This document shows, piece after piece, positions 11,465 to 56,358 of a DNA stretch of 64,000 nt. The notes beneath the pieces are model-generated. The model saw only the letters and a program-made list of their open reading frames with translations. It was not told the DNA's origin and searched no databases. A program made the position numbers and the translations under genes. Positions within the stretch are counted from its first letter, which is position 1. Each line of letters starts with the position of its first letter. The DNA comes from Burkholderiales bacterium (GTDB lineage Bacteria; Pseudomonadota; Gammaproteobacteria; Burkholderiales; JACQAP01), in NCBI GenBank assembly GCA_046155535.1, contig JBJXFN010000129.1, positions 9,659-73,658 on the forward strand. Reading direction: 5' to 3'.

Positions 11465-12724
11465 TCAGAGTTTGAACTCTGGCAGTTTGCGGGCAACCGC
11501 GATATTTTTGAGCGTCACATAACGTGGCAGTCCGTCCCGAAACGGCGGGTAATCCTCGCCCTGGATCAACGGGGCGAGATAGGTCCGGCATTTTGCGGTG
11601 ATGGAGAAGCCGTCTTCGGAAATAAAGTCGCGCGGCATGAATTTTTCGCGATTGGCCACGTCCTTGAGTTCGGCCACTCCGATGCTCCACCTGTAGGGTT
11701 TTGCGGACTTGCGCACAATCGTTGGCATGACCGCATTGCGCCCCTGCAAGGCGAGTTCCACCGCGGACTTGCCCACGGCATAGGCTTGGAGGACGTCGGT
11801 TTTGGAGGCGATGTGGCGGGCGGCCCGCTGCAGATAGTCCGCCACGCCCCAGTGATACTTGAGTTTGAGTCCCTGTTTGATGATGCCCGCCACCACTGGC
11901 GCCACACCGCCGAGCTGGGCGTGGCCGAACGCGTCGCGCAAGCCCTGGTCGGACAAAAACTTGCCGTCGCCGCCCTTTACGCCTTCCGACACGACGACCG
12001 AGCAATAACCATGTTTTTTGACCATGGTATCGACCTTGGCCAGAAACTTCCCCTCATCGAACACGATTTCCGGAAAAAGGATCACGATCGGCAATTCTGA
12101 CTCTGAGCTGCTGGCCAGTCCTCCCGCAGCCGCGATCCACCCGGCATGGCGGCCCATGACCTCCAGCACAAAGACCTTGGTCGAGGTCTTGGCCATGCTG
12201 GCAACGTCGAAACTGGCTTCGCGCATCGACACCGCCACGTATTTGGCGACCGAGCCGAATCCCGGACAGCAATCGGTGATCGGCAGATCGTTATCGACGG
12301 TCTTGGGGATGTGAATGGCCTGCAACGGACAACCCAGGGTGGCCGACAATTGCGACACTTTCAGGCAAGTATCGGCCGAGTCGCCGCCACCGTTGTAGAA
12401 GAAGTATCCGATGTTGTGCGCCCGGAAGACCTCGATCAGACGTTCGTATTGCGCCCGGTTTTCTTCCAGGCCCTTGAGTTTGTAGCGGCACGAACCAAAA
12501 GCCCCGGACGGGGTATGCCGGAGCGCGGCAATCGCGGCAGCGGTTTCCTTGCCCGTGTCGATCAGGTCTTCGGTCAGGGCGCCGATGATGCCGTTTCGTC
12601 CGGCGAATACCTTGCCGATTTTTGTTTTGTGTTTGCGGGCCGTCTCGATGACCCCGGCGGCCGAGCTGTTGATGACGGCGGTAACCCCGCCGGACTGGGC
12701 ATAGAACGCATTTCGTTTTTTCAT
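11465..12724 (-). CDS. pfp: Pyrophosphate-dependent 6-phosphofructokinase
   Basis: From ATG at 12724 (SD GGAGG): MKKRNAFYAQSGGVTAVINSSAAG...GGGDS...PKTVDNDL...MGRHAGW. Sits upstream of hppA, as in methanotroph pfp-hpp operons. Confidence 0.9.
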   Translation of the reverse strand: MKKRNAFYAQSGGVTAVINSSAAGVIETARKHKTKIGKVFAGRNGIIGALTEDLIDTGKETAAAIAALRHTPSGAFGSCRYKLKGLEENRAQYERLIEVFRAHNIGYFFYNGGGDSADTCLKVSQLSATLGCPLQAIHIPKTVDNDLPITDCCPGFGSVAKYVAVSMREASFDVASMAKTSTKVFVLEVMGRHAGWIAAAGGLASSSESELPIVILFPEIVFDEGKFLAKVDTMVKKHGYCSVVVSEGVKGGDGKFLSDQGLRDAFGHAQLGGVAPVVAGIIKQGLKLKYHWGVADYLQRAARHIASKTDVLQAYAVGKSAVELALQGRNAVMPTIVRKSAKPYRWSIGVAELKDVANREKFMPRDFISEDGFSITAKCRTYLAPLIQGEDYPPFRDGLPRYVTLKNIAVARKLPEFKL

Positions 12725-12749
12725 GATGACCTCCGTAAGACAATGTTCA

Positions 12750-12932
12750 CCACGGAGGACACGGAGAACACGGAGAAAAACATAAAGACAAATTTGAATG
12801 GGAAAACGAGGGGCAAATGTTTCTCCCGCGTTCGGATTGCATGCCGTCGACGCACCGCCAACGTACAAATATCCCCAATACTTTATTCCTCCGATCTCTT
12901 GTTCTTCTCCGTGTTCTCCGTGTCCTCCGTGG
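12750..12932. repeat. Hairpin element: perfect 28-bp inverted repeats made of three tandem 9-mers (CACGGAGRA), 127-bp spacer
   Basis: 12750-12777 CCACGGAGGACACGGAGAACACGGAGAA is the exact reverse complement of 12905-12932. Lies between the adk stop and the pfp start. Confidence 0.85.
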
Positions 12933-12941
12933 TTCAATTCA

Positions 12942-13655
<714 letters not shown>

Positions 13656-14432
13656 TTATAAGTCCCGCAGGGAATCGGCGGAAAACCGGCGCCGCACGTT
13701 TTCCAGGTCGGCAGGCGTATCGACGCCCGGGTCCGGCGCATCATGGGTGACGGCGACCCGGATCCGGAATCCATGCCAGAGCACGCGCAATTGTTCGAGC
13801 GCCTCGAAAGTTTCAATGTGCGCGGCCTCCAGCGTTGCGTAAGTCTGGAGAAATCTGCATCGGTAGGCATACAGGCCGAGATGCCGGAAAACCGGCAGGC
13901 CCTCTGGCAGTTGCCGGACAGGCTTCGCGAACGCATCTCGCGCATAGGGAATCGGCGCCCGTGAAAAATAAAGTGCCTGTCCGTTTTTGTCGAGTACGAC
14001 TTTCACGACATTGGGATCGAAGGTTTCCGAAACCGATTGCATCGGGTGGCAGGCGGTCGCGACGTCAGCGTCCGCATGATCCTGTAACTGCGCGGCCACG
14101 GCCGCGATGAGCGCGCCGGGAATTCTAGGTTCATCCCCCTGGACATTGACCACGATCTGGTCTGCATGCCAGCCGCGAATCGCGGCGACCTCTGCGAGGC
14201 GGTCGGTGCCCGACAGGTGGTCCGCGCGGGTCATCATGGCGGTGTGCCCATGTTGCCGCACGGCCTCCGCGATTCGCAGGTCATCGGTGGCAACGATGAC
14301 TTCCGCAGCGCCGGATTGCCGCGCACGGTCCGCGACATGCACGACCATGGGTCTGCCGGCAATATCCGCCAGCGGTTTGCCAGGGAGCCGCGACGAGGCG
14401 AAGCGCGCGGGGATGACAACGACGAAATTCAT
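13656..14432 (-). CDS. kdsB: 3-deoxy-manno-octulosonate cytidylyltransferase
   Basis: [33 protein letters not shown]... ATG at 14432. No SD, because the heptamer repeat abuts the start codon. Confidence 0.9.
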
Positions 14433-14529
14433 GTGACGGGTGACGGGTGACAAGTGACGGACAGGTCAGACTCGGGGCGCGTGCGACGGATTTTCCTTCT
14501 CCTCACGAGTCACTTCTTACTTGTCACTC
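14433..14529. repeat. Tandem-heptamer hairpin element (GTGACGG type)
   Basis: Left arm GTGACGG GTGACGG GTGACAA GTGACGG. Right arm, reverse-complemented: GTGACAA GTAAGAA GTGACTC GTGAG. Fills the whole trm112-kdsB gap. Confidence 0.8.
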
Positions 14530-14707
14530 AAACTTCCTCCTCCGGAGGAAGCTTGCGCGCTTCGTCGTCCAGCATGACTGGAATGTCGTCCTGGATCGGG
14601 TAGGCGAGTCGGCACGGCTTGCAGAGCAGTTCTCGCTCCGGTTTCTTGTACAGCAGTGGGCCCTTGCAAAGCGGGCAGACCAGGATATCAAGCAGTTTTG
14701 GATCCAT
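14528..14707 (-). CDS. Trm112/YcaR (UPF0434) family zinc-ribbon protein, 59 aa (below the ORF-track cutoff)
   Basis: Reverse-strand translation [59 protein letters not shown]. Canonical position between lpxK and kdsB. Confidence 0.75.
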
Positions 14708-19194: not shown

Positions 19195-20181
19195 TCAGCC
19201 TGGATCGGCGAGTTGGCCTTCCAGCCACTCGCCGACCTGGGCCGATAGGTCAGCCGCCAGGCAATCGAATTCCCTCACGTTTGGGGTGGCGCGCAACCAG
19301 GTGAGTTGGCGTTTGGCGAGTTGGCGGGTGGCTGCGGTCGCCTTTTCTTTCAATCCGTTCAGGTCCAATTTGCCATCCAGGTGCTGCCATGCCTGGCGGT
19401 AACCCACGCACCGCATGGAGGGCAGGTCCGGATGCAGCTCGAAGTGTTCCCGTAGCCAGCGGACCTCGTGCAAGAAGCCGGCTTCCATCATGCGCTCGAA
19501 CCGTTCGGCAATGCGGGCATGCAATGCCGCGCGGTCCCCGGGTGTCAAAGCCAGAGAAATCATGCGAAACGGCAAAGGCCTGGATGATCCTTGGGCGAGC
19601 AGCGCCGACATCGGTTCGCCGGTGAGAATAAATACTTCCATGGCGCGCTGAATGCGCTGCGCATCGTGCGGATCGAGTCGCTCCGCAGTGGCGGGGTCCA
19701 TGCGCTGGAGTTCACGGTGCATCGCGGGCCAGCCGGCATCCCGCGCCATGGCATCGATCTCGAGGCGGGTGGCGCTGTTCGCGGCAGGCAGCTCGGACAG
19801 TCCTTCGCGAAGCGCCTTGAAGTACAGCATGGTGCCGCCGGTTAACAGCGGGATGTGATTGCGTCCGGTAATCTCGTGCATGGCGAGGAGCGCATCCGCG
19901 CAAAATTGCGCCGCCGAATATCGCTCGGTCGGATCGAGTAGATCAACCAGATGGTGTGGAATCTGCAGGCGGGTGGCGGCGTCGGATTTCGCGGTGCCGA
20001 TATCCATGTGCCGGTAAACCTGCGCTGAATCGACACTGACAATTTCCACCGGGAAATGTCTGGCAAGCTCGATCGCCACGCCGGACTTGCCGCTTGCCGT
20101 GGGGCCCATCAACAGAATTGCCGGGGGGCGCGGCTGCGCAGTGGCAGGTGCCGGGTGAGAAGTGACGGAGTTCGAACCCAA
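19195..20181 (-). CDS. miaA: tRNA dimethylallyltransferase
   Basis: LLMGPTASGKSGVAIELA...DSAQVYRHMDIGTAK. The listed start is TTG and lies inside a heptamer repeat arm, so the true start is uncertain. Confidence 0.9.
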   Translation of the reverse strand: MGSNSVTSHPAPATAQPRPPAILLMGPTASGKSGVAIELARHFPVEIVSVDSAQVYRHMDIGTAKSDAATRLQIPHHLVDLLDPTERYSAAQFCADALLAMHEITGRNHIPLLTGGTMLYFKALREGLSELPAANSATRLEIDAMARDAGWPAMHRELQRMDPATAERLDPHDAQRIQRAMEVFILTGEPMSALLAQGSSRPLPFRMISLALTPGDRAALHARIAERFERMMEAGFLHEVRWLREHFELHPDLPSMRCVGYRQAWQHLDGKLDLNGLKEKATAATRQLAKRQLTWLRATPNVREFDCLAADLSAQVGEWLEGQLADPG

Positions 20182-20275
20182 TTTTGCTTCAGTCGGGAAT
20201 GGAAGGCAGCGCCTGATTTCAGGAATGGGGCCGAAGACCTGTCACTCGTTACCCGTCACGGGTCACTTGCCCCTC
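20148..20275. repeat. Tandem-heptamer hairpin element
   Basis: Left arm GTGCCGG GTGAGAA GTGACGG. Right arm, reverse-complemented: GTGACCC GTGACGG GTAACGA GTGACAG. The mutL stop TGA is part of the first heptamer. Confidence 0.75.
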
Positions 20276-25140: not shown

Positions 25141-25336
25141 TTTTGCGCTTGCGTCCGGGGATGCACCGGCGCATGGGAGACTGGACGGGTGCAGCCGCAA
25201 GCCCAATAATTGTCATGCGCGACCCGGGCGGCGCCGGATTGTTCCCTGAGGCGGGTTGCCGCGCGGCGGGCGCAGCGGGTTGCAGGCATTGCAACCGGAA
25301 TTCGTCATCGTCCGTTCCCTAGGACCCAGACCAAAC

Positions 25337-28300
25337 ATGATGGACAAAAAAACGATTTTCTCCAAAACCGGAAAAGGCGTTCTGGAGGTCAAGAACAAAT
25401 CCGGGAAATTGCCCAAGGATCTGACCAGGGTGCTGTCCCTGATCGATGGCAAGTCGCCGATGGTCGACCTGCTCGAAAAATCCGGCCTGAGTGACGCCGA
25501 CATGGAAAAGGCGATCACGCAATTGACGACCGGTGGTTTCATCAAGGAATTCGGCAATACCTCCGGCGCTTCGACCGGCGGGGGAGCCGGCAGTGCCTAC
25601 GTTGACGATCTGGATTTCACTTCTTCGCTCAGTTCGGGAAAATCTGTCTACCAAAATGCCCAGTCGGAGTGGCGTCAACGCGAGTCCGCCGACCGTCTGA
25701 AAGCGGAGGAGGAGGAAAAGCGCAAGCGGGAAGAGGCGGAACGTCTCAAGAAGGATCAGGCGCAACGCCATGGCCGCGAAGAATCCTCTCGTATGGCGGC
25801 CGTGGAGGCCGAGCGCAAAGCCAAGGAAGCGGCTGCGCTGAAGATGCGCGAAGAGGCGGAGCGCAAAGCCAAGCTGCAGGCCGTCGCCATGGAACAAACC
25901 CAGCGCGACATGCAGAAAATTCTGGAGGCCGAACGCAAGGCCTTCGAGCAGGCCGAGTTGAAGCGCCAGCAGGAAGAGCAGAAAAAAGGGCAGGAGGAGG
26001 CGGCCAGGCGGGCAAAGGAAGATGCCGAGCGCAAACGCATCGAGGAAGAAGGGCGCCGGCGCAAGGAGCAGGAGGAGGCGGAGAAGCGCGCCCGCGACGA
26101 GGCTGAACGCAAACGCCGGGAGGAAGAAGAGCGTAAGCGCAAAGAGCGCGAAGACGCGGAAAGACGGGTTCGGGAGGAGGCCGAACGCAAACGCCGCGCG
26201 GAGCAGGAAGAAGCCAGACGGCGCGAGGAGGAAGAGCGCAAGCGCAAAGAGGAAATGGAACGCAAGCGCCGCGAGGAAGAGGAGCGCAAGCGGCGCGAGG
26301 AGGATGAACGCAAGCGTCGCGAGGAAGAGGAGCGCAAACGCCGGGAGGAAGAAGAGCGCAAACGCAAGGAAGAAGAAGAGCGCCGCAAACGGGAGGAAGA
26401 AGAACGCAGGGTGCGCGAAGAAGTCGAGCGCAAACTCAAGGAAGAGGAGGAGCGCCGCCGCAAGGAGGAGGAGGAGCGGCGCAGACAGGAGGAAGAGGAT
26501 CGCCGGCGACGCGAAGAGGAGTTGCGCAAGCTTCGTGAAGAAGAGGAGCGCAAGCGCAAGGAGGCGGAAGACGCCGAGCGCAAGCGCAAGGAAGAAGAAG
26601 AGCGCCTGCGCCTGGAGGCGGAAGTGGCGCGACGCTTGCGGCGTGAAGAGGAGGACCGCCGCCGCCAGGAGGAGGACGAACGCCGTCGGCGCGAGGACGA
26701 GGAAATGCGCGGCGCCGATGGCGACGGACGTGCCGAGGAAGAAAGGCGTCGCGAAGAGGAAGACCGTCGCCGTCGCGACGAAGAGGAACTCCGCCAGAAG
26801 GAGGACGCGGAGCGTCGTCAGAGGGAAGAGGCGGAGGCTCGCCGGCGGGAAGAAGAGGATCGGCGCCGTGCAGATGCGGACCGTCAAGCCCGGGAGGACG
26901 CGGAACGGCTGCGCCAGGAAGATGACCGTCGCCGTCGGGAGGACGAAGAACGCACACGCACCCGCACCCGGGAATCGGCCAGCAGCGATCTGGGTCAGAT
27001 CGACTTGTCCGGCCTTGCGGGATTGCAAGTGCCTCCGCCCTCGACGAAGGCGGATCTGCCGACGTTCGATCTTTCCGGTCTGCGCGCGATGGAAACCCAG
27101 GTCGCGGCGGAATTCGACAAGCAACAGGAAGACCTACGGCGCCGGGAGGAGGAGGAGGAGCGCCAGCGTGAAGAGGCCGAGCAGGCCCGCATGGCCATGG
27201 AGCGCGCGGAACGCGAAGAACACGCGCGCCTGGAATCGGCCCGTCGCGAAGCGGAGGACCGGGAGCGGCGCATCCTGATGGAGCGCGAGCGCGCGGAGCG
27301 GGAAGAGGGCGAACGCAAACGCAAGGAGGAAAAGGAACAACGCATCCGGGAGCAGGAGCAGGCCAAGATCAAAGCTGCGATCGAACGCGAGCGCCAGGAG
27401 GCGATGCGTATCGAAAACGAGCGGCGCAGCCGCGAAGAGGCGCTGGTGCAACGGCGCAAGGAACAGGAGGAGCGGGACCGCAAGCGGGCGGAAGTCGACT
27501 CGCTCCGAAAAACCAAAGCCGTCAAGACACCGCTCGAACGCCTCAAACCCCTGGTGCTCGGGGTCGGCATCCTCGCGGCGGTGGTGCTTGGGGGTATCCA
27601 GCTTGCGCCGCTGAATTCCTATATTCCGGCGATCGAGAAACTGGCCTCCGATCATATCAAGGAGCCGGTGTCGATCGGTTCGGTGAAATTGTCGGTGTTC
27701 AGCGGGATCGTCCTGAATCTTGACGACGTCAAGCTGGGCGCAACGCAGGACGTCAAAATCGGCAAGGTTTCATTGGCCACCGATTTCGGCTCCCTGTTCG
27801 GCGAAACCAAGGTCATCAAGACTTTGCAGGCCGAATCGGTAAACGTGGCGGAAGAAGTGTTGCAACGATTGCCGAAATGGAAGGACGCTGCGGTTGCCGA
27901 CACCCATGTGCAGGTGGGTCGTGTCCTTCTCAACTCCGTGAAACTGGAAACCCAGGCGATGCAGGTGCCAAGCTTTGACGTGCAATTGCAAATGCTGCCC
28001 GATGGCACCATCCGTGGAGGCAGCGTCAATACCACCGATGGCAAGTTGCGCATGGAATTTACACCCAAGGGTAGCGATGTAGAGATTGCCGTGACCGCCA
28101 CCAAGGGCTGGAAACTTCCGCTGGGACCCCAGATCGAAGTGACCGACCTGACGGCGCGTGCCATCGCGTCCCACAGCCAGATCCGGGTGGAGAGTTTCGA
28201 AGCATTCTTGTACGGCGGCGTCGCTAAAGGCAGCGCACTGATCAACTGGGGTGGTCCGTGGTCCATTGAGGGCGACGTGAGCACCGAACGGGTGGGCATG

Positions 28301-28744
28301 CAGGAGCTCATAGCGACCTTCAGTCGCGAAGCCAAGGCCACCGGGCAGCTGGAATCGAAGTTCCGCTATGCCATGGTGGCGGCCGGATTGGGCAAACTTT
28401 TCGAGTCCCCGAAGGTGGACGGCACGTTCACGCTTCGCAAAGGTGACCTCGACGGTGTGGATCTGGTCCGGGCATTACAAGGCGGCGGGCGTGGGGTTGT
28501 ACAGGGGGGTGCTACGCGCTTCGAGGAAATCTCCGGCAGCTTTTCGCTTGCCAACGATCGCTTTCAGTATCGCGGCCTGAAGCTCGCCTCCGGATTACTT
28601 TCCGCCAGCGGCGGGTTCGAAGTGACTCCGGCCAGGGATGTGACAGGAAGAATATTCGTCGAATTACGATCCCAGGCGGCACAGATTCAGGGCAACTACG
28701 ATTTGGATGGTTCTTTGAAAGCGATCATGCTCCGGCCGCGGTAA
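25337..28744 (+). CDS. AsmA-family protein with a small N-terminal domain and a Glu/Arg/Lys (ER/K) repeat tract of about 600 aa before the single TM helix
   Basis: ATG at 25337 (MMDKKTIFSKTGKGVLEV...). ER/K repeats such as EEERKRREEEERKRKEE. TM helix LKPLVLGVGILAAVVLGGIQLAPL. C-terminal AsmA-like region (...FSLANDRFQYRGLKLASGLLSASGGFEV...LDGSLKAIMLRP). Confidence 0.8.
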   Translation: MMDKKTIFSKTGKGVLEVKNKSGKLPKDLTRVLSLIDGKSPMVDLLEKSGLSDADMEKAITQLTTGGFIKEFGNTSGASTGGGAGSAYVDDLDFTSSLSSGKSVYQNAQSEWRQRESADRLKAEEEEKRKREEAERLKKDQAQRHGREESSRMAAVEAERKAKEAAALKMREEAERKAKLQAVAMEQTQRDMQKILEAERKAFEQAELKRQQEEQKKGQEEAARRAKEDAERKRIEEEGRRRKEQEEAEKRARDEAERKRREEEERKRKEREDAERRVREEAERKRRAEQEEARRREEEERKRKEEMERKRREEEERKRREEDERKRREEEERKRREEEERKRKEEEERRKREEEERRVREEVERKLKEEEERRRKEEEERRRQEEEDRRRREEELRKLREEEERKRKEAEDAERKRKEEEERLRLEAEVARRLRREEEDRRRQEEDERRRREDEEMRGADGDGRAEEERRREEEDRRRRDEEELRQKEDAERRQREEAEARRREEEDRRRADADRQAREDAERLRQEDDRRRREDEERTRTRTRESASSDLGQIDLSGLAGLQVPPPSTKADLPTFDLSGLRAMETQVAAEFDKQQEDLRRREEEEERQREEAEQARMAMERAEREEHARLESARREAEDRERRILMERERAEREEGERKRKEEKEQRIREQEQAKIKAAIERERQEAMRIENERRSREEALVQRRKEQEERDRKRAEVDSLRKTKAVKTPLERLKPLVLGVGILAAVVLGGIQLAPLNSYIPAIEKLASDHIKEPVSIGSVKLSVFSGIVLNLDDVKLGATQDVKIGKVSLATDFGSLFGETKVIKTLQAESVNVAEEVLQRLPKWKDAAVADTHVQVGRVLLNSVKLETQAMQVPSFDVQLQMLPDGTIRGGSVNTTDGKLRMEFTPKGSDVEIAVTATKGWKLPLGPQIEVTDLTARAIASHSQIRVESFEAFLYGGVAKGSALINWGGPWSIEGDVSTERVGMQELIATFSREAKATGQLESKFRYAMVAAGLGKLFESPKVDGTFTLRKGDLDGVDLVRALQGGGRGVVQGGATRFEEISGSFSLANDRFQYRGLKLASGLLSASGGFEVTPARDVTGRIFVELRSQAAQIQGNYDLDGSLKAIMLRPR
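25667..27510 (+). repeat. Purine-rich coding low-complexity repeat (GAG/GAA/CGC/AAG codons, partly about 30-nt periodic) encoding the ER/K tract
   Basis: Runs of gaggaagaggagcgcaagcg-type units, interrupted by a non-repeat linker near 26950-27130. It generates spurious long ORFs in five other frames. Confidence 0.7.
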
Positions 28745-28756
28745 TCCGCGGAACGA

Positions 28757-29317
28757 TCAGCTGAGGTCGGCCCGAGTGTCGATGTCGCGCAGGATGCCGG
28801 GATCGCCACATTCCACAATGTCGATCTCGGCAGCATGGCGCTTGACGATTGAGCGCGCGCCTTCGTCTCCCCGCAGGGCAAGAAGCTCTTCCCGGTACCG
28901 ACGATCAAAACCAACCGGATTGCCGCGCTCCCCCGCGCAGGCCGGGATGACAATCGGGGCTCCCCCGGACAATCTCGTAGTCAGTTTTCGAAGAGTGGCT
29001 GGCAGAACATACGGCATATCTCCCAGCGCACACAGCCAGCCATCGGCATTGGCGGATTCCCGGATTGCCCGGATCAGGCTGCGAGACAAACCCTCGTGCG
29101 CGTCCTCGCAAACGAGGACTTTGGCCCCTTCTTTTTCGAACAGCTCCCGCAATGCTTCGTCGCCTTCCCGGATCACCACCAACGTGTCGGGCAGCGCATT
29201 GCGCAGATTTCGATACGACACCATTCCCAAGGCTTCTCCGTTCGAAAGAGGATGCAGCAATTTACCGCCGCCGAAGCGACTGCCACTGCCGGCCGCGAGA
29301 AGGATGCCCTGGATCAT
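28757..29317 (-). CDS. MobA/MocA-like nucleotidyltransferase (molybdenum cofactor cytidylyl/guanylyltransferase family)
   Basis: MIQGILLAAGSGSRFGGGKLL...LGDMPYV...GERGNPVGF. Confidence 0.75.
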   Translation of the reverse strand: MIQGILLAAGSGSRFGGGKLLHPLSNGEALGMVSYRNLRNALPDTLVVIREGDEALRELFEKEGAKVLVCEDAHEGLSRSLIRAIRESANADGWLCALGDMPYVLPATLRKLTTRLSGGAPIVIPACAGERGNPVGFDRRYREELLALRGDEGARSIVKRHAAEIDIVECGDPGILRDIDTRADLS

Positions 29318-29327
29318 TTTGAAGGTC

Positions 29328-29436
29328 GGCGAATGGTGATCAGTGATCGATGGCCGGTGAAAGGCCGGGACAGAACCGGTGAATCCTGGCGCAAAGCGCG
29401 TTTTTACCGTTCACTGTGCGCCGATCACCGTTCAAA
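29328..29436. repeat. Tandem-heptamer hairpin element (GGTGATC/GGTGAAA type)
   Basis: Left arm GGCGAAT GGTGATC AGTGATC ... GGTGAAA ... CGGTGAATCC. Right arm ACCGTTCACTGTGCGCCGATCACCGTTCAAAC is complementary in kind. Fills the amiC-mocA gap. Confidence 0.7.
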
Positions 29437-29438
29437 CT

Positions 29439-30710
29439 TCAGTACTGCGCGAGTTTGTTTCGTGGCACAGGCGGATTGGCGGCGAAATATTTGCGTATCC
29501 CGGAAAGGATCGCCTGCGCCAGTTTCTCCTGATATTTTTCATCCTTGAGTTTCTTTTCTTCTTCGGGATTGGTCAGGAAGGCGGTTTCCACCAGTATCGA
29601 TGGAATTTCGGGGGCCTTGAGCACGGCAAATCCGGCCTGTTCGACGCGTGCCTTGTGCAGATCGTTGATCTCGCCTATTTCCCCCAGGACTGATTTGGCC
29701 AGCTTGAGACTGTCATCGATGGTTGCGGTCTGTGCGAGATCCACCAGAATCTGCTGGACCATCGGATCCTTGTCCGCCAGGTTGACGCCACCGATCTGGT
29801 CCGACTGATCCTGTGCTTCGGCCAGGATGCGCGCCGCCGCCGACGTGGCTCCGCGCTCCGACAGGGCGAACACCGACGAACCCCTGGCATGAGGCTTGAT
29901 AAACGCGTCGGCGTGGATCGAAACAAACAGGTCTGCCTGCACTTTTTGCGCTTTTTTCACGCGGTCTGTCAGTTTCACGAAATAGTCACCATTGCGGATC
30001 ATGACCGCGCGCATCGAGGGCTCGTTATCGATCAGCGCTTCGAGACGTTTGGCGATCGCCAGCGTGATGTGTTTTTCGTAAGTGCCGCCGCGTCCCCGGG
30101 CACCGGGATCTTCACCGCCGTGGCCTGCATCAATGGCGATCGTGATCAATCTTGCAACGTCGGCCGGCGCCGGCGGCGGCGAGTTCGTTGTGGCGGACGC
30201 GCCCGGGGTTTCGGGTTTTGCGCTGACGATGGGCGCTTTCGGCTTCTTTTCTTCCAGCAGCGCCAGGATCGGATCGACAGGCTCGCTGGGGTAGACGTCC
30301 AGCACGAGACGATGGCCGTATTCGCCGATGGGCGCCAGTGCGAAAACCTGGGGCTTGACGTCGGCTTTCAGATCCAGCACCAGGCGCACCATGCCCGGTT
30401 TGAACCTGCCGGTGCGAAGTCCGCTGATATAGGGGTCATCGGCTGAAATTTTGGCAGGCAATTTTTCGATCTCTGCGCCGAATTCCACATCTTCCAGATC
30501 AATGACAAGTCGGCGTGGATTGGCGATGGTGAATACCGTGTGGGCAATGCGCCCATTCGATTCCAGAGTCAGGCGTGTATATTCCTGCGCCGGCCAGATG
30601 CGGGCCGAGCTGATCTGGACGGCCGCGAAGGCCGGGACGGGTAGGCTCACGCAGGCAAGAAGGAAAATCGCCAGGAAATGAATTTCCTTTTGCCAGACGC
30701 CGGTTTTCAT
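29439..30710 (-). CDS. amiC: N-acetylmuramoyl-L-alanine amidase (AmiC-like, with AMIN domain)
   Basis: From ATG at 30710: MKTGVWQKEIHFLAIFLLACVSLPVPAFA...ARIWPAQEYTRLTLE (AMIN domain)...IAIDAGHGGEDPGA...SIHADA. Confidence 0.85.
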   Translation of the reverse strand: MKTGVWQKEIHFLAIFLLACVSLPVPAFAAVQISSARIWPAQEYTRLTLESNGRIAHTVFTIANPRRLVIDLEDVEFGAEIEKLPAKISADDPYISGLRTGRFKPGMVRLVLDLKADVKPQVFALAPIGEYGHRLVLDVYPSEPVDPILALLEEKKPKAPIVSAKPETPGASATTNSPPPAPADVARLITIAIDAGHGGEDPGARGRGGTYEKHITLAIAKRLEALIDNEPSMRAVMIRNGDYFVKLTDRVKKAQKVQADLFVSIHADAFIKPHARGSSVFALSERGATSAAARILAEAQDQSDQIGGVNLADKDPMVQQILVDLAQTATIDDSLKLAKSVLGEIGEINDLHKARVEQAGFAVLKAPEIPSILVETAFLTNPEEEKKLKDEKYQEKLAQAILSGIRKYFAANPPVPRNKLAQY

Positions 30711-55186: not shown

Positions 55187-55396
55187 GTAAACGGTGATCG
55201 GTAAACGGTGAATGGTGAATGGTGAACGGTAAGCGGCGAACGGTGAACGGTGAATGGTGCAAAGCGAACAAGGCCGGAGGAAGACGGTGACAGGTAATGG
55301 GCATCGTTTGAACGGCGATTCAACAAAGCAGTTTGAGAGGACCAGCGTCGCCTTTTCGAGGCCTCCCCGTTCACCGTTCACCATTCACCGATCACC
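55187..55396. repeat. Tandem-heptamer hairpin element (11 left-arm units GTRANNG; 4 right-arm units)
   Basis: 55187-55263: GTAAACG GTGATCG GTAAACG GTGAATG GTGAATG GTGAACG GTAAGCG GCGAACG GTGAACG GTGAATG GTGCAAA. 55366-55396 CCCGTTCACCGTTCACCATTCACCGATCACC is the complementary arm. Confidence 0.85.
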
Positions 55397-55859
55397 ACAA
55401 GCAGGCTTCACCCTGATCGAGCTCATCATCACCGTGGCCATTGTGGCGATCCTGGCCTCCGTGGCCATGCCGCTCACCCAGCTTGCGATCCAGCGCGGCA
55501 AGGAACAGGAACTGCGCACGGCACTGCGGCAGATCCGGGAGGCAATTGACGCTTACAAACAGGCAACCGACGAAGGACGTGTGGAACGCCCCGCCGACGC
55601 TTCCGGGTACCCCTCGAATCTTGAGGTCCTGGCCGCCGGCGCGGATGACATCAAGATGCCGGTGCGCAAGTCGATCTATTTTCTGCGGCGCATCCCGAGG
55701 GATCCCTTCGCGCCGGAAAACATGCCCGCCGCACAGACCTGGGGCAAGCGCAGTTACGCAAGCCCGCCGGAGGCGCCGCGCGAGGGCGCCGACGTTTTTG
55801 ACGTGTTTTCACTTTCCGAAAAGACCGGCATGAACGGTGTTCCCTACAAAGACTGGTGA
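55254..55859 (+). CDS. GspG-like pseudopilin (second copy); start codon and leader uncertain
   Basis: PQAG/FTLIELIITVAIVAILASVAMP then a GspG-like body ending YKDW. No ATG/GTG/TTG within 32 codons upstream of the G/F site. The ATG at 55254 lies inside the repeat arm. Confidence 0.75.
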   Translation: MVQSEQGRRKTVTGNGHRLNGDSTKQFERTSVAFSRPPRSPFTIHRSPQAGFTLIELIITVAIVAILASVAMPLTQLAIQRGKEQELRTALRQIREAIDAYKQATDEGRVERPADASGYPSNLEVLAAGADDIKMPVRKSIYFLRRIPRDPFAPENMPAAQTWGKRSYASPPEAPREGADVFDVFSLSEKTGMNGVPYKDW

Positions 55860-55991
55860 TCGGTGAACGGTGATTGGTGATCGGTGATTGGTGATGGGAG
55901 AATGGCAACAATTGAACGACAGGCGGTCAAGTCTGCATTCGACGGGCAGGGATAATCTTGTCCGTTCACTGTGCACCATTCACCGTTCGCC
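55856..55991. repeat. Tandem-heptamer hairpin element (6 left-arm units GTGAYNG)
   Basis: 55856-55897: GTGATCG GTGAACG GTGATTG GTGATCG GTGATTG GTGATGG. The first unit contains the stop of the preceding pseudopilin. Complementary arm at 55962-55991: CCGTTCACTGTGCACCATTCACCGTTCGCC. Confidence 0.85.
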
Positions 55992-56358
55992 GGTTCCCGG
56001 CTTCACTCTCATCGAATTGCTCGTGGTGATGTCGATCATCGCGCTGCTCCTCACGCTGGCGGCGCCGCGCTACTTTCACAGCACGGACCGGGCGCGGGAG
56101 GCGGTGTTGAAACAGAATCTGGCGCAAATGCGGGATGCCATCGACAAATTTCACGGCGATCGCGGCCGGTATCCAGACCGCCTCGACGATCTGGTCGAGA
56201 AAAAATATCTGCGCCGGATTCCGACCGATCCCATCACTGATTCGCCGGACTCCTGGGTCCGGATTTCGCCCGATGAAGCACAGTCCGGGGGCGTGTTCGA
56301 CGTGCGCAGCGGCGCACCGGGTACCTCCCTGGATGGAACTGCTTACGCAAGCTGGTGA
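55894..56358 (+). CDS. GspG-like pseudopilin (third copy); start codon and leader uncertain
   Basis: PVPG/FTLIELLVVMSIIALLLTLAAP then DKFHGDRGRYP...ending YASW. The ATG at 55894 lies in the last heptamer. The leader would be about 37 aa. Confidence 0.75.
   Translation: MGEWQQLNDRRSSLHSTGRDNLVRSLCTIHRSPVPGFTLIELLVVMSIIALLLTLAAPRYFHSTDRAREAVLKQNLAQMRDAIDKFHGDRGRYPDRLDDLVEKKYLRRIPTDPITDSPDSWVRISPDEAQSGGVFDVRSGAPGTSLDGTAYASW

Follow-up and report, generated by a model that had tools for sequence, protein, structure and literature searches.

What are the hairpins that stand between genes in a 64,000-nt stretch of Burkholderiales DNA, one of them spanning the whole gap between trm112 and kdsB? The stretch (hereafter the window, meaning all of the DNA analyzed) belongs to a 3.8-Mb metagenome-assembled genome (MAG; 263 contigs, 60% GC) from an uncultured soil genus of this order, and an earlier note on it had described at least five intergenic hairpins with arms of tandem heptamers. 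The same arms occur around genes of family PF05635 and in helix 25 of a 23S rRNA, and we therefore read the window elements as gene-less hairpin cassettes resembling the intervening sequences (IVSs) of rRNA, sitting in mRNA as tolerated passengers, a reading to which we give an about even chance. Repeats of this kind are already known from Xanthomonas, Geobacter, and cyanobacteria; we found no earlier report of their link to IVSs and cargo genes.

Hairpins with tandem-unit arms in the window

Direct reading of the letters confirmed that all five stretches are hairpins with tandem-heptamer arms. Element 1 (positions 14433-14527), at the trm112-to-kdsB junction with both genes on the minus strand, is composed of GTGACGG-type units. 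On the plus strand, its left arm (14433-14460) reads GTGACGG GTGACGG GTGACAA GTGACGG, its loop covers approximately 40 nt (~14461-14499), and its right arm (14500-14527) reads TCCTCAC GAGTCAC TTCTTAC TTGTCAC; the predicted fold has −42.3 kcal/mol on the plus strand (z −3.5) and −30 kcal/mol on the minus strand. As the earlier note had stated, such elements fill their gaps and touch the flanking codons: the trm112 stop codon TGA (14528-14530, minus strand) directly abuts the first heptamer (...GAA GTT TGA and then GTGACAA on the mRNA strand), and the kdsB start codon ATG (14430-14432, minus strand) directly abuts the last one (..CCGTCAC and then ATG AAT TTC). No Shine-Dalgarno (SD) sequence lies between the last heptamer and this ATG, from which the KdsB N terminus agrees with that of its relatives.

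Element 2 (20148-20267), at the minus-strand mutL-to-miaA junction, has a degenerate left arm, a spacer of ~70 nt, and the right arm CTGTCAC TCGTTAC CCGTCAC GGGTCAC. The mutL TGA (20263-20265) is contained within its first unit, GTGACCC, and the arm distal to mutL, which is decayed, may be read as the MiaA N terminus. Element 3 (29328-29436), on the minus strand between amiC and a mocA-like gene, is built from GGTGATC/GTGAACG units, starts 4 nt past the amiC TGA (29439-29441), and stops 9 nt short of the mocA-like ATG (29315-29317); its predicted folds have −50.4 and −41.5 kcal/mol on the two strands. Element 4 (55187-55397, plus strand), between a secretin gene and a pseudopilin gene, consists of ~10 AACGGTG units, a loop of ~105 nt, and 4 to 5 CCGTTCA units, the loop carrying GGAGGAAG-N3-GTG, with the GTG (55287) in frame with the 3′ arm and a prepilin leader (..HRSPQAG/FTLIEL, the slash marking the cleavage motif). 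Element 5 (55855-55992), between pseudopilin genes 2 and 3, has ~6 GGTGATY units, the first of which contains the upstream TGA, a ~70-nt loop, and 4 complementary units.

The window also holds an element with 9-nt units (12749-12933), located between two minus-strand open reading frames (ORFs), upstream of the one beginning MKKRNAFYAQSGG... (start 12724-12726). Its arms, CACGGAGGA CACGGAGAA CACGGAGAA and TTCTCCGTG TTCTCCGTG TCCTCCGTG, follow the pattern of three CACGGAGRA units and then three TYCTCCGTG units, are 97% complementary, and enclose a 117-nt loop. A scan of the whole window against Rfam gave no covariance model match at gathering score.

The caution that arms disturb start-codon calls was well placed: open frames run through the 3′ arm, and start-codon prediction is therefore misled. 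The elements add spurious N-terminal extensions to predicted proteins and probably break short-read assemblies.

A dispersed family with two classes of unit

Tandem arrays were called in the whole source genome with Tandem Repeats Finder (TRF), and an array was scored as paired when a strong reverse-complement partner lay within 350 nt, with the reversed, uncomplemented sequence as the control. The genome contains 91 arrays of at least three GTGA/TCAC words at 7-nt spacing, versus 59 for GCGC, a four-fold commoner word. TRF yielded 126, 49, and 154 arrays of periods 7, 8, and 9, versus 9 (period 5) and 7 (period 11). An inverted partner was found for 37/122, 17/48, 86/150, and 6/14 arrays of period 7, 8, 9, and 10, respectively, and the control gave 0, 0, 2, and 0. 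Merging produced 108 elements, 102 of which were assigned to the family; with these 102 paired elements against 0 to 2 per period in the control, the notion of a genuine dispersed family holds. The genome-wide scan by which the earlier note proposed to refute the family thus favored it instead.

Two classes of unit were distinguished. Class A has units of 7 to 8 nt (GGTGAAC, GTGACGR, GTGAGGC, GAGGTGC, GTGAATGA), and its heptamer arms comprise 3 to 11 units each; GTGAACG, GTGACGG, GTGAGGC, GAGGGGC, and GGGACTC are GTGAnnG and one-step derivatives of it. Class B has units of 8 to 10 nt (GACGCAAA, CACGGAGGA, CACAGAGGA, CGCAGAGGA, CACGAAGGAA).

The (GTGANNN)x3GTGA pattern was present in 22 of 24 congeners. 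Across the order, 87/301 genomes and 45/142 genera have it, and in several unrelated families the hits exceed 80.

Fixed polarity, matched arms, and unrelated loops

The purine-rich arm comes first in 104 of the 108 elements (p = 3e-26), and this polarity is valid on both strands because each element is an inverted repeat. Within an element the arms are matched to each other: the native partner was the best-matching arm for 9 of 31 heptamer elements and 18 of 54 nonamer elements, chance predicting about 1, and variant units are mirrored in order across both arms. Predicted stems average −64 kcal/mol. The loops, ranging from 13 to 170 nt, are mutually unrelated between copies, as all-against-all BLAST left only 4 small clusters among ~100 loops.

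These properties bear on the suggestion that the elements resemble repetitive extragenic palindromic (REP) sequences and bacterial interspersed mosaic elements (BIMEs), or MITEs (miniature inverted-repeat transposable elements). There is no conserved palindrome of 20 to 40 nt with a conserved head as in REP/BIME sequences, and the tandem units that make up the arms come in many sequences; a MITE model was rejected on the unrelated loops. What survives of the suggestion is the idea of a nonautonomous element, which gains some support from PF05635 and PF13366 genes enclosed by the same arms (see below). We also followed the proposal to search the genome for a REP-associated tyrosine transposase (RAYT), and three Y1-transposase (PF01797) genes were found, with no arrays beside them. 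Among the congeners, 31 of 37 possess Y1 genes, in most of them in 1 to 12 copies, without any correlation with arrays: genome G021 has 12 Y1 genes and no arrays, and G011, G009, and G013 have arrays and no Y1 gene. A RAYT/IS200 link was hence rejected, PF01797 being uncorrelated and nonadjacent. Movement of a REP/RAYT or MITE family by a transposase is thus very improbable: the elements are dispersed intergenic palindromes in a genus where Y1 genes are frequent, and a few related cargo cassettes do occur at nonhomologous sites, but internal sequences are unique, no terminal sequence is conserved, and occupied sites are orthologous genus-wide. No target-site duplication was seen at the junctions read, all of them in species-level genomes with orthologous occupied sites.

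These Y1 genes, unrelated to the hairpins, are of unusual length (open frames of 240 to 350 aa), for example those at C89:2117-2827 and C198:2355-3194 of the source genome.

Placement between stop and start codons

The earlier note had placed the elements between co-directional genes, and the census agreed: 81 of the 90 classifiable elements lie in such gaps, 5 in divergent gaps, and 4 in convergent gaps. By comparison, 71.5% of neighboring gene pairs are co-directional (p = 1.9e-5), and gaps of this kind make up 64.6% of intergenic DNA (p = 3e-8). Approximately 20 of 24 class A elements start within −7 to +7 nt of the upstream stop codon, and between the end of such an element and the next gene's first in-frame start lie 0 to 25 nt. 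We scored GGAG/GAGG/AGGA motifs before the first in-frame start, by one procedure for elements and genome-wide, and found an SD motif downstream of 1/24 class A elements versus 784/2,089 starts (37.5%) in the genome (p = 3.8e-4). Class B elements leave 10 to 60 nt on each side, and their downstream SD frequency (14/42) equals the genome's rate.

Stable stems in intergenic DNA might suggest intrinsic terminators, and the Xanthomonas heptamer pairs have been interpreted as G-quadruplex (G4)-forming (PMC4692102). Both functions appear exceedingly improbable here. A T-run follows the second arm in only 7/81 elements and only 4/90 elements lie in convergent gaps, on which grounds terminators were rejected; the GTGAACG, GTGACGG, and GGTGATC units hold no G3 tracts, and therefore no G4 can form. 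Such G4-incapable units remove the only explanation of heptamer repeats that has been pursued experimentally.

These data also bear on plain replication slippage, by which the arrays would be microsatellites of the kind of Mrazek's long simple sequence repeats (SSRs), paired by accident and with no IVS, cargo, or RNA role. Unit number does differ between close species, arrays are patchy over 45/142 genera of the order, and heptamer SSRs are over-represented in many bacteria according to work cited in PMC4692102. However, pairing far exceeds the control, the polarity is fixed in 104/108 elements, the stop/start placement is precise, variant units are mirrored between arms, and arrays and PF05635 tend to occur together (p = 2e-5). 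On the statistics of pairing, polarity, and placement, plain slippage is largely refuted, and we regard it as quite improbable.

Old junctions with rapidly changing arms

To follow single elements through the genus, we read their junctions in 30 congeners, each represented by a species-level genome. The trm112-kdsB hairpin was present in all 30 as well as in six named MAGs, reaching from the stop codon, or from a stop that the first unit provides, as far as the start codon, and the mutL-miaA hairpin was likewise present in 30/30, with differing units. At trm112-kdsB, the units are GTGACGN, GGTGAAC, GGTGATT, GGGACTC, GTGTCTG, GAGGCNA, or CCCTCGC, depending on the species. The close species G011, G012, and G052 have a common loop, with arms that differ by a single unit each, and native arm pairs at this junction have −29 kcal/mol versus −20 kcal/mol for cross-species pairs. 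In G008 and G021, the two congeners without GTGA arrays, only decayed remnants were found there. Hairpins of GAGGACT type already occupy both junctions in G027, the nearest outgroup. Thus, the elements are old and vertically inherited, and their arms change fast and in concert.

In 6/12 genomes from the order's other families, trm112 and kdsB overlap (TGATG, ATGA, GTGA) or lie at most 2 nt apart, and in 9/12 the same is true of mutL and miaA, with a distance of at most 7 nt; in Escherichia coli, the latter two overlap by 8 nt. These tight gene pairs indicated that the elements sit in formerly coupled junctions.

The same comparison qualifies the observation that the units place TGA in all frames on both strands. 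This is arithmetically true for GTGAnnn, yet it is neither defining nor selected: stop-less units occur at the same junctions in congeners (GGGACTC, GTGCTGG, GAGGGGC, CGTGGCT) and in class B (CACGGAGGA), and TGA in every frame is therefore a by-product.

Such data could be viewed as adaptive operon punctuation of the REP/BIME type, in which the hairpins would protect the upstream cistron against 3′ exonucleases, stall terminating ribosomes right in front of the stem, or provide processing sites, and would thereby set the expression ratio of adjacent cistrons. The enrichment between co-directional genes with depletion in divergent and convergent gaps, the start of the stem at a fixed 3 to 7 nt past the stop codon, and the position kept genus-wide at two junctions would all suit this explanation, which has likewise been proposed for the hairpins of short tandemly repeated repetitive (STRR) sequences in cyanobacteria (PMC2670836). 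Against it, the sense strand has no folding advantage, several congeners show decay of the hairpin at the very same junction, and unit type, length, and loop vary freely, while the identical design in rRNA and around selfish-looking cargo points to a passenger. Punctuation is therefore unlikely, though it keeps a real share of our expectation.

Shared arms around cargo genes and in 23S rRNA

PF05635 is the 23S rRNA intervening-sequence protein (S23p), an Avd-like pentameric four-helix bundle. All four PF05635 genes of the source genome reside in the loops of tandem-unit hairpins, the arms being built from one kind of unit each (CCAGGCN, GTGAATGA, GTGAGGC, and GGTGAAC). Arrays flank both sides of at least 56 of the 62 PF05635 genes in relatives. 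Across the order, the family is present in 17 of 25 genomes rich in arrays and in 2 of 25 free of them (p = 2.2e-5, kinship ignored). Where two of the proteins exceed 70% identity, their arms are similar; such pairs mostly occupy orthologous sites, but a few related cassettes stand at nonhomologous ones.

A second cargo was found in class B. The source genome has five genes of PF13366 (PD-(D/E)XK, PDDEXK_3, the "GxxExxY" nuclease family), all within arms of 8- to 10-nt units and in hairpin loops: C36:735-1161, C166:11881-12366, C249:12604-13346, C213:962-1417, and C20:~1880-2294. With PF05635 only in class A and PF13366 only in class B arms, cargo and arm class agree in 9/9 cases. None of the five window elements contains a PF05635 gene, their loops measuring only 40 to 105 nt.

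The same genome has, at C104:21954-22956, the whole of flgG between a GTGAATGA-type array and a complementary array. These are probably the facing arms of two neighboring elements and not an flgG cassette.

The 23S genes were compared with a DNA query; they are in the assemblies of only three congeners, and the assembly of the source genome contains none. In one rrn copy of congener G014, a 129-nt insert (C2:179552-179680) was found at E. coli 23S positions 540-553 (helix 25), and its stem reads GTGAACG GTGAACA GTGAACA GTGATTG ... CGATTAC TGATTAC GGATCAC TGGTCAC; the other rrn copy has an insert of similar length. Thus, the helix-25/45 IVS trait holds for the family, by way of G014, and not for the window elements. 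A parallel is offered by the IVS of Coxiella burnetii: its 28-bp terminal stem contains tandem heptamers (GACAGAT), more or fewer of them depending on the strain, its loop holds an S23p/PF05635 ORF, and RNase III cleaves at the first repeat (PMC4990558). Occurrence of the same arms in three settings, namely, operon junctions, PF05635 genes, and 23S helix 25, ties the repeats to IVSs excised by RNase III and supplies a concrete, testable mechanism.

In both G014 and a second congener, G051, the 23S gene carries inserts at helix 25 and helix 45. The helix-25 insert of G051 (C4:441824-442221, ~400 nt) contains three tandem copies of a ~84-nt unit, and the helix-45 inserts (G014, C2:180294-180508; G051, C4:440985-441209; 215 to 225 nt) are structured and have no tandem units.

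The agreement between cargo and arm class might also be expected if the arms were DNA-level binding arrays for a chromosome-acting protein, either a nucleoid protein or the pentameric PF05635 protein itself. The symmetric structure without strand bias would fit, and in Geobacter metallireducens paired 7- to 9-mers are annotated as global-regulator sites, with a consensus (TCTCCGTS) that equals the 9-mer found here (PMC2700814). However, one architecture is built from dozens of unrelated units, even at one junction across species, and therefore one regulator cannot read them all; the best arm match lies within the same element, which reflects a requirement for pairing rather than for a shared site, and placement in 23S helix 25 is sensible only for RNA. 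Thus, we consider binding arrays improbable.

A passenger model and the evidence against it

How might gene-less cassettes persist between genes that were once coupled? In the IVS-like reading, the elements would be transcribed along with their operons, and closure of the stem would loop the insert out of the polycistronic RNA, bringing the upstream stop codon beside the SD-less start; with stop and next start side by side, we propose that ancestral translational coupling survives. By analogy with rRNA IVSs, the stem would probably be cut by RNase III. Replication slippage and template-switch correction of quasi-palindromes are established mutational mechanisms, and the arms, which change by gain and loss of units with complementarity kept, are probably homogenized by the two together. 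The net effect would be mainly tolerated passengers and not regulators evolved operon by operon. One may speculate that a C-rich 5′ arm would be exposed, load Rho, and thus be selected against, and that the purine-first polarity reflects this. If the reading is correct, the elements are natural experiments on translational coupling across an insertion of 70 to 230 nt.

Several results weigh against this reading. Folding is predicted to be better on the sense strand in 42 elements and on the antisense strand in 39, and at the kdsB junction across congeners the corresponding numbers are 12 and 17; without strand bias there is no G:U signature of selection on mRNA, a candidate explanation for which the data gave no support, and arm symmetry could be purely a DNA-level property. 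At trm112, GGAGGAGGAAG, an SD motif, lies just upstream of the stem, right before the TGA, but class A as a whole shows no enrichment at this position (3/24 versus 17%); a general rule by which the stem bridges an upstream SD to the AUG was thus rejected, fitting only trm112-kdsB. The junction hairpin has decayed without visible harm in G003, G007, G008, and G021. Cargo and arrays also come apart, as G004 has 175 array hits and no PF05635 and G021 has one PF05635 and no arrays. tblastn of the gene-less loops detected no cargo remnants, giving no support to their being decayed PF05635 genes, and descent from gene-bearing cassettes is therefore unproven. The gene and start calls came from our own rough ORF caller, and the compared genomes are MAGs, whose contigs are broken by repeats and which may have lost cargo cassettes. 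Finally, we infer the folding in vivo, the cleavage by RNase III, and the coupling.

A bolder form of the model, which we hold doubtful, is a two-class, self-maintaining system of tandem-unit hairpins and PF05635/PF13366 cargo proteins, in which the hairpins act as "introns" of mRNA and rRNA. PF05635 would recognize arms of 7- to 8-nt units and PF13366 arms of 8- to 10-nt units, each protein creating, homogenizing, or spreading gene-less hairpins of its own class; the stem would be cut by RNase III or closed, and a ribosome terminating at the upstream stop would restart at the SD-less AUG across the stem base. If true, such a system would be a bacterial counterpart of ribosome shunting.

Relation to known repeats

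Heptamer repeats in bacteria have reportedly been known since 1990, as STRR sequences, and their over-representation is said to have been shown in 2007. A literature search by the repeat sequences returned only unrelated primers, and no publication was found that links tandem-unit hairpin repeats to IVSs or to PF05635/PF13366.

The closest relatives are the GGGAATC repeats of Xanthomonas (Rehm et al. 2015, PLoS One), which occupy 70 to 75 sites per genome in convergent pairs, are ~90% intergenic, mostly between ORFs of the same direction and near the upstream stop on the coding strand, are 83% position-conserved in two species with varying length and sequence, and are transcribed and read as G-quadruplexes (PMC4692102). 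The elements described here share with them the tandem 7-nt units on opposite strands, the G/purine-rich arm coming first on both strands, the co-directional setting near an upstream stop, and positions kept between species with varying units. In contrast, they have no G-tracts, they employ many unit sequences per genome instead of one, and they include a second class of 8- to 10-nt units; links to PF05635 and helix 25 are not reported for Xanthomonas.

The ORF-bearing 23S IVSs of Coxiella and Leptospira (Warrier et al. 2016, PMC4990558) resemble our elements in the long terminal-inverted-repeat stem with tandem heptamers, and in congener G014 the classical helix-25 site is occupied by a hairpin with GTGAACN arms. 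They differ in that the window elements are gene-less and located at mRNA junctions, and RNase III cleavage, demonstrated there, would have to be assumed here.

In G. metallireducens, the "global regulator binding sites" are opposite-strand pairs at variable distance, with 4 to 5 tandem units of 7, 8, or 9 nt and one pair between proB and proA, and their describers took them for IHF/HU sites (Aklujkar et al. 2009, PMC2700814). The 9-mer of class B equals their class 2 consensus, TCTCCGTS[Y], although the organism belongs to a different phylum and no hairpin, cargo, or rRNA link was drawn there. The 9-nt unit TCTCCGTG/CACGGAGA is common to this betaproteobacterial genus and the class 2 sites of that deltaproteobacterium, a sign either that cassettes have spread horizontally or that both lineages converged on an SD/anti-SD-like word (GGAGG/CCUCC).

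Cyanobacterial STRR hairpins between hupS and hupL, for which a role in transcript stability or translational coupling was proposed (PMC2670836), have 7-nt tandem units and likewise stand between cotranscribed genes, with different unit sequences and in a different lineage. The TAACTGA repeats of the Beggiatoaceae are found just upstream of starts without ribosome-binding sites (PMC4679880); unlike the present arms they are direct and not paired, and again unit sequences and lineage differ. REP/BIME/REPIN (REP doublet hairpin) sequences are similar as abundant intergenic palindromes, often in operons and near stop codons, but REPs have a conserved sequence of 20 to 40 nt, a GTAG/CGTC head, and a flanking RAYT gene, in contrast to the variable tandem arms seen here.

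Additional features near the window elements

Four further features were noted in the window. At the 3′ end of trm112 (14531-14556, minus strand), the last codons contain a hairpin of 8 to 12 bp, AAACTTCCTCC-GGA-GGAGGAAGTTT, which immediately precedes the stop codon and element 1 and holds the only SD-like sequence near kdsB. It is conserved genus-wide with compensatory changes that alter the protein, as in G011, where CTTCTTCC/GGAAGAAG yields LLPTEEV versus LPPEEEV.

Near element 2, a short palindrome precedes or encodes the MiaA N terminus, just upstream of ..ILLMGPT (window ~20100-20135; congener loci L096-L124). It exists in two covarying versions, GAATTGCCGCCGGCAATTC with ..ELPPAILLMGPT and GGATCGCCCTGCGGCGATCC with ..QDRPAAILLMGPT, and the source genome is without the 5′ half. 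In some species, the frame opened by an ATG directly behind the hairpin runs through a (CCCTCAC)n array, which thereby becomes an N-terminal extension.

At element 4 (region 55260-55397), translation from the GTG at 55287 would cross the 3′ arm into the prepilin cleavage motif, and the leader of the next pseudopilin, HRSP(V)PG/FTLIEL, is likewise arm-encoded. With both HRSPQAG and HRSP(V)PG specified in this way, the repeat units appear to encode leader peptides.

Lastly, TRF detected long 24/48/72/96-nt periodic repeats coding for Glu, Arg, and Lys at 26024-26800, within an AsmA-like ORF (25256-28744).

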